Assembly (NCBI RefSeq): GCF_006345805.1
Contig: NW_021825797.1
Coordinates: 1-14,203 of the forward strand
Direction of reading: 5' to 3'
Source: Octopus sinensis
Lineage: Eukaryota
DNA: 14,203 nt
Shown here: in pieces, positions 1-14,203 of the stretch
Position numbering within the stretch: position 1 is the stretch's first letter
Layout of the letters: every line of letters begins with the position of its first letter
Translations under genes and position numbers: made by a program
Notes under the pieces: generated by a model
Databases searched by the model: none
Seen by the model: the letters and a program-made list of their open reading frames with translations, nothing else
What the model was told of the DNA's origin: nothing

Positions 1-609
1 GGGCAGGCGGGCGGGGCGGAGAGAGCAGATGCTCGGTCCACGGAACATCCTCTGACAAGGGCGGTGTGGATAGGGGGTGAGGGGATATCCACGTAGGATG
101 AAGTGGCGAGCCACGAATTGAGACTGAGTCTCAAAGTCATGGTCTTCACTACAGAGCCTGCGTACACGGAGGAATTGGGAATAGAGGATGGAAAGTTTGG
201 TGTATCTAAATGGGAGGAGGAGAAGTTGAGGTATGAGTGTGAGTCTATGTGTTTGTAGTTGATGGAAGTGGTGAGAGTGGAGTGATGAATGCTGACCGAA
301 ATATCAAGAAAGGAGACAAAGGTGTCAGAGATAGTGCAGGAGGAGTGGAGGGCAGAATAAAAAACAGAGGAAACAAAGGAGAAGAAGGAGTCTAGATGTT
401 CACGGGAGAGTGAGATCGCACCGATACAGTCGTCAATATAACAGCCGTATTGTTCGGGAATGGGACAAGTGAAACTTGAGAGTATTTGGGCCTCAACGTA
501 GCCAATGAACAGGTTCGCATAGTCGGAGCCCATTCTTGTTCCCATCGCCACTCCCGAGACTGGTGGTAAAAATCACCAACAAACGAGAATCAGTTGAGTG
601 AGAGGACAA
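1..609 (-). mobile_element. Degraded Penelope-like element (PLE) reverse transcriptase fragment, running off the window start
   Basis: Manual minus-strand translation across frameshifts and a stop gives VLSLN*FSFVGDFYHQ / VSGVAMGTRMGSDYANLFIGYVE...YGCYIDDCIG / SDTFVSFLDISV...NYKHIDSHSYLNFSSSH / SILYSQFLRVRRLCSEDHDF...FILRGYP. The GxAMG, YIDD, FLD, D-SHSYL, SQFLR-RR-CS and RGYP motifs are typical of PLE RT and thumb regions. Confidence 0.88.
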
Positions 610-6405: not shown

Positions 6406-6673
6406 CCCTTTCGTTACTGACCTGGCTGAAATCGTAGCGTCTCCTGGACTCGTAGCGTCTACTGGACTCGTAACCGATACATGACATCGTTATCTTGACG
6501 GTTATGCTTTTGAAAACCATAAGAAAGGGACAGTTACGAAACACCTCAAGAACAAAAAGGAAGTTTTTAAGATTGCGAGAGGCAATTTGAAATGTCACTC
6601 TTCTGCGAAGAAACAGCACGTGTAATCAGCTACACCCTAGTGACGTCATCAGCATTCTATAGCAACGAAAGTG
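6406..6673. mobile_element. piggyBac-like MITE 2 (268 bp, TTAA TSD)
   Basis: TTAA(6402-6405)-CCCTTTCGTTAC...GCAACGAAAGTG-TTAA(6674-6677). The TIRs match at 10 of 12 positions. Confidence 0.75.
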
Positions 6674-6750
6674 TTAAAACTACTGGCCTTGTGCCTAAAT
6701 CGTAACCCACCAGGACATTGCAGTTAATATTTTGGCTCTATGTTCTTATG

Positions 6751-8540: not shown

Positions 8541-8817
8541 GTGTAGCATCTCCTGGACTCGCAGCGTCTCCTGGACTCGTAGCGTCTACTGGACTCGTAG
8601 CGTCTCCTGGACTCGTAACCGATACATGACATCGTATCTTGACGGTTATGCTTTTGAAAGCCATAAGAAAGGGACAGTTACGAAACACCTCAAGAACAAA
8701 AAGGAAGTTTTTAAGATTGCGAGAGGCAATTTGAAATGTCACTCTTCTGCGAAGAAACAACACGTGTAATCAGCTACAACCTAGTGACGTCATCAGGATC
8801 CAGCATTCTATAGCAAC
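8541..8817 (+). repeat. Second copy of the interior of MITE 2 (6432-6666), without TIRs, starting with four 18-bp units TCGTAGCGTCTCCTGGAC
   Basis: Beyond the 18-bp array (4 units here, 2 at 6432-6467) the copies differ by 3 substitutions, a 1-bp indel and a 7-bp indel over about 200 bp. Confidence 0.95.
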
Positions 8818-9067
8818 ATGGTGTTGTTGCTAAACCAATACACAATGCTATCTGCAGAAGAGACTTCCCTGGATTAAATATAAACATTTCTGCTATGGAG
8901 TACATACGAACACAAGGAATATTATGCGAACATTCCCATCAAAACTTCTGCCAAGTGCAAACAAAAGAGACCTGACATTGTTATTTGGGACTGAAAAGAA
9001 AATTACAGCCGACGAAGTCAGTTACTTTACAGATCTGAATAGCACTTTCAAATCCAGTGAGAAGGAG

Positions 9068-11730: not shown

Positions 11731-11885
11731 AGCTTCGATAATTAGCATCCGGGTAACAACGCATATATTTTGCGGAAAGAGACCCTGTGAGACCTATGAC
11801 AGCAGGCTGCTGTCCGCTCTCAGAATCAACCAGAGCAAACGAAACCGAGCGCTGTGAGAAGTAAAGCCATAATGATAATAATAAT

Positions 11886-12558
11886 AACGTAAAGTGTACT
11901 AGCCATCTCAATGTGACTAGCCACTGGGGGTGGGTGTTACTGAAGCTTTTAGCCCCAGGAGGCAAAAACCTCGAAACTATAGTCCGTATGTATCACTTAG
12001 GTTTTGCGAGAGGGGATGACCTCCTTTTGCGAATATCAGAAGGCAACAGAAAGTGTGTCTAAAGCCAGCTGGAGACGATGATCTCCTGGGGCTAAAAGCT
12101 TCAGTAACACCCACCCCAGTGGCTAGCCACATTGAGATGGCTAGTACACTTTACGTTGTCGAGCGGTTACTGTTTACATCTCGTTCGGAGATTTATTAAT
12201 GCTTTCAGGCAGTTTTTCGAAATCAGTGACAGTGGTTGCTGGGAAAAACATTAAATAGATATTCGCAAAAAGGTCTCCCCAATCGAAAACCGGCGATTAC
12301 CATACGTTGACGAGAGGCAAAAACCTCGAAACTATAGTCCGTATGTATCACTTAGGTTTTTCGAGAGAGGATGACCTCCCTTTGCGAATATCAGAAGGGC
12401 ACAGAAAGTGTGTCTAAAGCCAGCTGGAGACGATGATCTCCTGGGGCTAAAAGCTTCAGTAACACCCACCCTTAGTGGTTAGCCATATTGAGATGGCTAG
12501 TATACTTTACGTTGTCGAGCGGTTACTGTTTACATCTCGTTCGGAGATTTATTAATGC
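11886..12558 (+). mobile_element. Hammerhead-containing non-autonomous retroelement (retrozyme / Penelope pseudo-LTR-like): 355-bp-period partial tandem with a 5' inverted arm
   Basis: Direct repeats at 11959-12202 and 12314-12558 differ at about 10 positions in ~245 bp. 11886-11961 is the reverse complement of 12083-12157. A hammerhead lies at 12301-12345 with its 3' half repeated at 11959-11990. (TAA)n flanks both sides and there is no ORF. Confidence 0.8.
12301..12345 (+). ncRNA. Minimal type I hammerhead ribozyme (core variant UUGACGA)
   Basis: Stem I CATACG / core TTGACGA / stem II GAGG-CAAAAA-CCTC / GAAA / stem III C-TATA-G / TC (cleavage triplet GUC, 12337-12339) / stem I' CGTATG. All core positions are canonical except C3, which is U. 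Confidence 0.85.
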
Positions 12559-12583
12559 GATAATAATAATAATAATAATAAAA

Positions 12584-13155: not shown

Positions 13156-13571
13156 ATCTATAACTATTTTCCAATTCTTTAATTTTCTCATCCATTGTCT
13201 TTTGATGCATCAGTATTTTCATCACTTGCTCTCTGAAGAAGTAATAAAACCCGAAGCGTTATCATTTTTTCATTTGCCACCGTAGAAACATATTTCTTTA
13301 ACAAAATCTCTATTAGAGACGGAAGTAGTATTTGTACCGAGAAGTAATGTTCATCGCCACCTAAACATGGTTGTTCAATAGGAACAGACAATACTGCTAT
13401 TTTAAACCCGGGTTGTTTGTTGTTTTTACACTGTTATTATTGTTATTTAATCATTTTATTCCTTTCTTTTTCTCGTATGTAATGCTGGAATTAAAAATGG
13501 CGATGAAGAGTATTTGGTCGAAGGGGGAGGTGAGTGATTTTCATGACCATCGTAGTAGTAGTAGTAGTAGT

Positions 13572-14203
13572 CGTCGATGCCTCCACCAAATTTGGAAGTG
13601 GTCTAACGATTGGGACCTGTGTCTGAACGTGTCAAAGTGCTGTCATCTGCCTGTCGGCTCTACTCCTGCAACTCAACTTGATTTCGAGCCGGGTCGTCTG
13701 CTGCTGGAGAGGACCGATCAGGTAAAGGACCTGGGTATCTTGGTGGATTCCTCCTTTTCGCCTTCGGCCCAGTGCGTCCATGCTGCCAACAAAGCGCGAG
13801 GAATTCTGTTTTTGATTCGACGGTCATTCGGAATGCTCACAGGCAGCATATTCCTGCCACTCTATGTCACACTGGTGAGACCCATATTGGAGTATGGGAT
13901 TCAAGCCTCTTCTCCTTATCTCCTCAAGACATACAGCACCTCGAAAGAGTCCAGAGGCTGGCTACCGCATGGTTCATGGTCTCAAAAATTTGTCCTACGA
14001 AGAAAGGCTGAGGACGCTCGACCTTTGTTCTCTTGAAAACGCCGCCGCCGTGGTGATCTCATTCTCGCCCAGAACATCATAAGCGGGAAGTGTAACCTCT
14101 CGAAAGAGCTGTTCTTAACTCCTGCTCCGGAGCGTCGGCTGCGGGGTCATTCCGAAAAGCTCTAACCTGCGACGATTTCATCTCAATCGAAGGAGAGGAG
14201 CTT
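13572..14203 (+). mobile_element. 5'-truncated CR1-group LINE, ORF2 RT C-terminal region, frameshifted, continuing past the window
   Basis: Joined frames give WKWSNDWDLCLNVSKC...VKDLGILVDS...KARGILFLIRRSF...LYVTLVRPILEYG...SPYL/DIQHLERVQRLAT/RMVHGLKNLSYEERLRTLDL.SLE/RRRRGDLI...RLRGHSEKL/LRRFHLNRRRGA. LERVQR, SYEERL, RRxRGDLI and RGH are hallmark CR1-type motifs. Confidence 0.92.

Follow-up and report, generated by a model that had tools for sequence, protein, structure and literature searches.

The window analysed here is a stretch of 14,203 nucleotides from Octopus sinensis (contig NW_021825797.1). At 12202-12558 it carries one copy of a 357-nt non-coding mobile repeat (43.7% GC, longest stop-free frame 52 aa) with a hammerhead motif. 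The features in and around this copy are given below.

11874..11885, + strand: 12-bp target-site duplication on the left side, lying within a (TAA)n tract; the identical 12 bases stand at 12559-12570
11886..11961, - strand: inverted piece, 5'-truncated, covering unit positions 237-312, with end site A as its outer end
11959..12201, + strand: partial upstream unit, unit positions 113-357, 96% identical
11976..11990, + strand: upstream substrate strand, comprising the palindrome, a GUC triplet (C17 at 11984) and the 3' strand of stem I
12202..12558, + strand: full retrozyme unit, 357 nt, non-coding
12258..12392, + strand: long hairpin with the hammerhead at its tip, from the MFE fold and pairing
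12279..12292, + strand: unoccupied target site of L1/Tx1-type LINEs, which have inserted at it elsewhere with a duplication of about 13-14 bp
12297..12300, + strand: bulge on the 5' side of stem I, with loop 2 as its predicted partner (aligns with the HH9 bulge; putative contact)
12301..12306, + strand: stem I, 5' strand, from pairing probability and covariation
12307..12313, + strand: core positions 3-9, with U3 (12307) opposite G8 (12312)
12314..12327, + strand: stem II, 4 bp, with G10.1-C11.1 and a 6-nt loop
12328..12339, + strand: G12-A13-A14, palindromic stem III (12331-12338) and the predicted cut after C17 (12339)
12340..12345, + strand: stem I, 3' strand
12514..12558, + strand: 45-nt Penelope-type tail, from end site A (12513) to end site B (12558)
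12559..12570, + strand: right target-site duplication

The inverted piece and the partial upstream unit share a 3-nt overlap. The upstream unit begins at G10.1 and retains stem II, GAAA, the palindrome and the cut site, without core positions 3-9. Its GUC cut site (11984) and that of the full unit (12339) are 355 nt apart, and the segment between them (11985-12339), folded as a circle, reaches -121.2 kcal/mol (z -6.0, 60 shuffles). Elsewhere in the 2.7-Gb genome, where 3019 first-look candidates for the unit were found and 40 were scored, copies occur as dispersed insertions and as head-to-tail arrays of 2-4 units (L012, L013, L043, L056). Judged from its sequence, the hammerhead unit is a non-LTR retrozyme, a class of low-GC, non-coding units of 150-450 bp that bear one type I hammerhead.

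The long hairpin and the hammerhead at its tip are as originally predicted, and every pairing that had been claimed is present. The segments 12258-12269 and 12381-12392 are exact complements, and the region 12258-12392 folds at -50.3 kcal/mol (z -6.09), with 0/200 shuffles equally stable. Pair probabilities in three sequence contexts were 0.78-1.0 for stem I (12301-12306/12340-12345) and stem II (12314-12317/12324-12327), and 0.0 for stem III of the monomer. The extended stem I of about 50 bp holds as a span but not as a pair count, since 35 pairs were counted below the 6-bp stem I. The core reads UUGACGA at 12307-12313, with T at 12307 and C17 at 12339, and the palindrome ACTATAGT occurs at 11976 and again at 12331. 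The proposed comparison with Rfam models gave a match of Hammerhead_HH9 to 12289-12361 (37 bits, E 1.2e-7) that lies below the 52-bit gathering score; an Rfam scan of the whole window returned no hammerhead, only microsatellite-driven miRNA matches.

The motif has an open helix I of 6 bp, a helix II of 4 bp with a 6-nt loop and a helix III of 2 bp with a palindromic loop, the three helices standing round the core in the canonical type I topology. Loop 2 and the stem I bulge align with Rfam HH9, loop 2 is alike across lineages, and a tertiary contact between loop and bulge is predicted. In the window copy, as in its U3·G8 clade, all core positions outside the 3-8 pair match the consensus (CUGANGA, GAAA, UH), but the Watson-Crick 3-8 pair of that consensus is replaced by a U3·G8 wobble. 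Helices of 6, 4 and 2 bp with a loop-bulge motif are what PMC4209133 describes as the canonical hammerhead; its minimal forms are described there as having no or a rudimentary helix III, a helix II of 7-8 bp, a helix I of 4-5 bp and an additional nucleotide separating position 9 from position 10.1. Neither those helix sizes nor the extra nucleotide is found in the window hammerhead, which does share the palindromic 15.2-16.2 region with minimal forms. The label "minimal" was therefore wrong, because the architecture is the one called canonical in that source. As modelled, the motif is a real, canonical type I hammerhead for which self-cleavage is predicted.

The word CUGAUGA at 6646 and 8790 was considered and rejected, as neither occurrence has a matching GAAA; these words lie on the minus strand in two copies of a dispersed repeat (window ~6580-6680 and ~8720-8820) without a hammerhead fold. 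The window also contains a degenerate LINE-like coding fragment (13365-14036), whose 109-aa frame has no Pfam match, and at 2161-2499 a frame that we take to resemble the N-terminal helix-turn-helix part of a mariner transposase.

Descent and conservation of the U3·G8 core

The family was searched with a pattern in which positions 3, 8 and the loop centre were left free, giving 130 matches, 100 of them listed. A hand count of the 100 listed gave 57 U3-A8 copies with UGCA, 36 U3·G8 copies with UAUA, 6 U3-A8 copies with other loops and 1 with A3; none had C3, and none combined G8 with UGCA. U3 was thus found in 99 of these 100 family matches, and it was found in 37/37 distinct aligned copies. 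Exact searches returned 49 copies of U3·G8/UAUA, spread over many contigs, and 85 of U3-A8/UGCA (0 for reversed controls), and 0 matches for the C3 version of the family pattern. It is position 8, not position 3, that varies within the family. A check of C versus T at 12307 in the family had been proposed, and the answer is T in 99 of the 100 listed matches and never C. Contigs of sequencing runs from three organisms likewise show a G majority at 12312, with no C listed at 12307.

A maximum-likelihood tree was built from 70 of the 112 eligible copies and rooted with a sister family that has C3-G8; it placed 36 G8 copies and one A8 copy in a clade (UFBoot 99) nested among A8 copies, and a second tree of 136 segments, which excluded three segments with fold-back junctions or heavy damage, gave the same branching order. 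There are supported sub-clades within the G8 clade, including a lineage with G10.1·U11.1. The window copy lies near the base of the clade in the maximum-likelihood tree, so its placement as the most derived stem I sub-lineage was dropped. Because the G8 clade is nested in A8 copies and has supported sub-clades, G8 is derived and has outlived several copying rounds. By these sequence comparisons, U3-A8 is the older state and U3·G8 a derived, repeatedly amplified subfamily. With U3 fixed and G8 derived and amplified, the natural comparator is G8A rather than the U3C revertant. The repeat is likely still spreading, because the U3·G8 change is common to dozens of separately inserted copies.

The original prediction took U3 opposite G8 as a possible mark of a decayed or attenuated copy. 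Copy-specific decay is contradicted by a fixed U3, a G8 that is derived and amplified, 49 exact copies and no copy with C3. Attenuation is likely: in the full mutagenesis reported in PMC9901934, low activity was found for every single mutant that changed the CUGA and 3-8 region of one construct, and by analogy the U3·G8 core is likely attenuated, with weak cutting predicted. U3-A8 is a published natural variant (PMC3088659; PMC4209133), and one natural U3...G8 core is printed for a halophile, with a 2-nt insertion (PMC7151607). No amplified U3·G8 family was found in the literature searched; the supplement of PMC7229834 may bear on molluscan core variants.

Conservation of the structure was compared across five lineages that are 72-93% alike, and a similar fold was predicted for one sampled natural copy from each. 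Each of the 30 stem I cells holds a Watson-Crick or G·U pair, and the proposed search for covariation showed changes on both sides of two pairs in stem I and of one in stem II, some of the stem I changes being at CpG sites. The five lineages do not differ at G5, A6, A9, G12, A13, A14, A15.1, U16.1 or C17, and position 3-8 stays pairable in each. The predicted conservation of core nucleotides among homologues is borne out to that extent, but not as an excess over the surroundings: 9/13 core columns are invariant versus 109/154 downstream, so that the core is no better conserved than the rest of the unit.

The palindromic stem III had been proposed to suit dimer pairing, and the five lineages agree with this. 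The palindrome centre is CG, GC or AU, the central two bases pair only in the dimer, and the palindrome duplex is predicted at -7.2 to -11.1 kcal/mol versus +2.9 for the monomer hairpin. Dimer pairing is supported because the centre changes as a pair whose members meet only between two molecules, these changes amounting to only two independent events. The further proposal that the two tandem palindromes form a double hammerhead holds as far as pairing goes, but only one active site (11984) would result. The locus gives half a double hammerhead in cis because the upstream copy is without core positions 3-9. As modelled, a double hammerhead in cis could cut 11984 only and the dimer would not rescue 12339, for which a monomer fold or a partner in trans would be needed.

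Other lineages of the superfamily have altered cores as well. Two sister families were recognised where they adjoin LINE ends, one with C3-G8 and C10.1·A11.1, the other with C3-G8, U4C and C10.1·U11.1. In the youngest sister family (L203-L232), with a mean divergence of 1.3%, the core is U4C, C10.1·U11.1 is mismatched and the palindrome is a third one. The 5' breaks often met at unit position ~81 of sister families were attributed to the alignment and set aside. The C3-G8, U3-A8 and U3·G8 lineages have mean divergences of 1-4% and were amplified to similar ages. Within the G8 clade, the variant with both U3·G8 and G10.1·U11.1 has about 10 assembled matches (L233, L235, L238, L240, L241, L243), and at 12327 it accounts for 74-81% of depth-weighted contigs in three runs, where contig depth does not stand for copy number; this is a weak hint that the variant may be present in large collapsed arrays. 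Several lineages, G8 types included, are represented among the contigs of four runs guessed to be RNA, as is a motif shared with the youngest sister family (U4C). These contigs contained no ends and no piece spanning the window locus and were therefore not used as evidence.

Insertion scars and the LINE target site

Insertion loci were picked by their likeness to the hammerhead region, and the following counts describe that sample. Among 138 distinct insertions, 50 cross a unit boundary and 59 contain an inverted piece. One outer end at ~312 (site A) and the other at ~357 (site B), 45 nt apart, were found in 41/59 inverted insertions; 2 had both ends at ~312, 4 had both at ~357, and 12 had an end elsewhere, several of these because a LINE interrupts them. 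The excess of mixed ends, 41/47 where both ends are at A or B, is significant (p 8e-8). Uninverted insertions end at one of the same two sites in 69/79 cases. Non-simple target duplications of at least 8 bp flank 23/47 insertions (shuffled mean 0.72), and 16 of these are 12-13 bp long. Retrozymes are expected to have target duplications longer than 4 bp, and those found here are mostly 12-13 bp. No clustering of genomic ends is seen at the cut site.

The tail between two fixed ends, the inverted 5' copy and the AT-rich targets are the traits of Penelope-mobilised sequences, and the tail-and-inversion pattern is described as typical of Penelope elements (PMC8557442). A Penelope element studied in vitro has two adjacent internal start sites, cuts both strands and uses AT-rich targets; protein-assisted hammerhead cleavage is reported for it, and hammerhead mutants showed no drop in its insertion (PMC11167929). 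The Penelope link first suggested on the grounds of the hammerhead thus gains from the scars themselves, in the paired ends 45 nt apart and the 12-13-bp duplications.

A decayed Penelope-type reverse transcriptase fragment lies on the minus strand at window 3-572; it is unlike the unit in sequence and has 9045 first-look candidates in the genome. This fragment served as the query in a search for an autonomous partner, and 150 scored relatives were retrieved. None of 40 PLE loci among the relatives of this one query (30 loci and 10 longer stretches) shares unit sequence, and no ORF with reverse transcriptase and GIY-YIG is joined to the unit in L001-L100. One of the 40 loci has its own, unrelated minimal hammerhead. 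Unit position 1 is preceded by position 357 of another unit, with no ORF. On present evidence, the sequence arrangement indicates that the locus is not a fragment of a Penelope pLTR.

Part of the long stem is itself a target. The segment 12279-12292 is the insertion site of several L1/Tx1-type LINE families (L061, L063, L064, L093, L101-L124, L197-L202). Each of the 14 exact 3'-end matches of a 5.5-kb LINE (family A) is followed by the target; two of them represent one segmental duplicate, and in four the sequence runs on into a further nested LINE. Of ten exact 3'-end matches of an ORF1-only family of 1.6 kb, 7 are followed by the retrozyme target, one stands ahead of a different hammerhead and two ahead of unrelated DNA. 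The site is also used by two other LINE 3' ends. The target is duplicated over 13-14 bp, truncations vary and several retrozyme lineages have been struck. The inserting LINE has APE, RT and zf-RVT domains, with zinc-knuckle ORF1 matches below the Pfam cut-off; these domains and the fixed target suggest an L1/Tx1-type element. Tx1 LINEs that target other transposons are known, and a legend in PMC4494074 lists "satellites" among the targets. No paper on LINE targeting of a ribozyme was found in the literature searched.

LINEs at the retrozyme site include the autonomous 5.5-kb form, an 81%-identical relative and the 1.6-kb ORF1-only form, and they are often nested in tandem. At L117, immediately past position 1520, a LINE 3' end is directly followed by a distinct U3-A8 hammerhead, whose palindrome is shorter, and at L192-L193 there is a 5.3-kb tandem repeat in which the LINE-like 3' end of each copy is joined to the retrozyme site.

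Interpretation of the probably weakened core

The reading that we consider probable is that of a canonical type I hammerhead in a 357-nt retrozyme, belonging to an amplified U3·G8 subfamily that is copied by Penelope machinery and that cuts weakly and preferentially as a dimer. Multimeric transcripts would be cut after GUC as double hammerheads, perhaps aided by a Penelope protein, and the monomers would be ligated into circles. A Penelope reverse transcriptase-endonuclease would nick AT-rich DNA on both strands, the two nicks lying about 12 bp from each other, with cDNA beginning at two internal sites 45 nt apart. If one cDNA overran the unit length and the other stopped early, their head-to-head joining could give the window locus. 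A weak core would fit an RNA that must not recut itself as a circle. In one U3·G8 copy (L061 7699-7765; duplicate L062) the unit is joined to a 5'-truncated LINE fragment exactly after C17, and the same junction is present in contigs of runs X15 and X16. Ligation of a cleaved RNA end would produce such a junction, but it is a single event, one among 17 other breakpoints, with a roughly estimated ~6% expectation by chance. More-than-unit copies could also arise from tandem transcripts without circles, and the sister-lineage changes U4C, C10.1·A11.1 and C10.1·U11.1 look damaging and count against this explanation.

A serious rival to weak dimer-favoured cleavage, although we think it unlikely, is a lineage that is dead but still copied. 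Here the same Penelope-driven element would have an effectively inactive U3·G8 hammerhead, its templates being uncut tandem-array RNA or RNA cut in trans by more active relatives, and the fold would be kept for packaging or dimerisation or would ride along. This would explain why the core is no better conserved than the rest of the unit, and the repeated, independent core damage in amplified lineages points the same way, as do the low activity of comparable mutants (PMC9901934), the dispensability of cleavage in vitro (PMC11167929) and the assembled tandem arrays of up to 4 units. The G10.1·U11.1 variant of G8, weakened still further and with only 10 assembled matches, dominates depth-weighted contigs in three runs, a weak hint of collapsed arrays. 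An inactive motif is harder to reconcile with nine core positions invariant in five lineages, a 3-8 position that is always pairable, a palindrome that has been kept and the junction exactly at C17.

The unit might instead be the pseudo-LTR of an autonomous Penelope element, the loci being truncated ends, which we regard as improbable. Such an origin would account for the Penelope-type tail, the inversions and the AT-rich targets; Xenopus retrozymes are described as related to pLTRs (bioRxiv 10.64898/2026.07.22.740005), and the examination covered a small fraction of the roughly 3000 first-look candidates. It is opposed by the position 357 of a neighbouring unit that stands directly before unit position 1, by the lack of any ORF longer than 52 aa in the unit and by site-specific LINEs being the only long shared upstream sequences in L001-L100. 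The earlier idea, a lone decayed copy of a minimal PLE hammerhead with C3-G8, has in its favour that C3-G8 is the usual pair and is carried by a sister family in this genome, but it is hardly credible given 49 exact U3·G8 copies on many contigs, no C3 in the family, canonical helix sizes and the maximum-likelihood tree, which contradict it.

A wider proposal, possible but doubtful, is that the superfamily repeatedly breeds successful lineages with crippled cores (U3·G8, then also G10.1·U11.1; U4C; C10.1 mismatches) while compensatory changes keep the dimer palindrome, the hammerhead being conditional, protein-licensed or purely structural. If so, cutting would be confined to encounters of two copies on the Penelope enzyme, the lineages would form a natural allelic series for testing if catalysis is needed by genomic retrozymes at all, and the long stem would also be a dedicated landing site of several LINE families.

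The need of hammerhead cleavage for the spread of retrozymes or Penelope elements is an open question in the literature (PMC8557442, PMC11167929). Because the C3-G8, U3-A8 and U3·G8 lineages are similarly aged, natural sequences allow activity to be set against success in transposition. The paired ends mark out two exact positions at which a Penelope enzyme should prime on retrozyme RNA.

Comparison with known systems

The class is already known; added by this locus is a derived U3·G8 lineage that appears to be still amplifying, within a natural series of weakened cores. Metazoan non-LTR retrozymes as described in PMC7229834 (350-390 bp in Mytilus, 331/353 nt in axolotl) are likewise non-coding units of ~350 nt, with a GC content below 45%, a type I hammerhead, tandem copies, a highly paired predicted circle and target duplications longer than 4 bp. 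The weak palindromic helix III resembles that of the axolotl motif, which requires a dimer. Unlike these retrozymes, the present family has U3·G8 or U3-A8 in the core, and most of its assembled copies are dispersed, with a Penelope tail and an inverted piece. The comparison is one of genomic sequence, with expression, cleavage and circles here being predictions only.

Penelope is likewise proposed as the mobilising partner in a preprint by Li, Clavereau and Pollet (bioRxiv 10.64898/2026.07.22.740005). That argument is built on co-occurrence and pLTR similarity in vertebrates, whereas here it is the insertion scar that points to Penelope, and no partner pLTR was found in the loci searched; the words "tail" and "core" are absent from the available text of the preprint. 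As in PAc (PMC11167929) and in PLEs (PMC8557442), there are two internal start sites and a one-ended tail, and as in PLEs generally (PMC11167929, PMC8557442) an inverted 5'-truncated copy and AT-rich or microsatellite targets. Unlike PLEs, the unit has no ORF, its tail is 45 nt long rather than 30-40, and its 12-13-bp duplication is resolvable. With PLE minimal hammerheads (PMC4209133, PMC3088659) the motif shares type I topology, a palindromic stem III and, in the parent subfamily, U3-A8; unlike them it is not minimal, and its U3·G8 is a wobble rather than a covarying pair. The LINEs resemble Tx1L in Tx1D, Tx1-Mar and Keno (PMC4494074, PMC4640811) in having APE and RT, a zinc-knuckle ORF1 and one site in a repeat. 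The "satellites" in the PMC4494074 legend come with no word on whether they bear ribozymes; unlike the target of Tx1L, Tx1-Mar or Keno, the target here is a hammerhead retrozyme.
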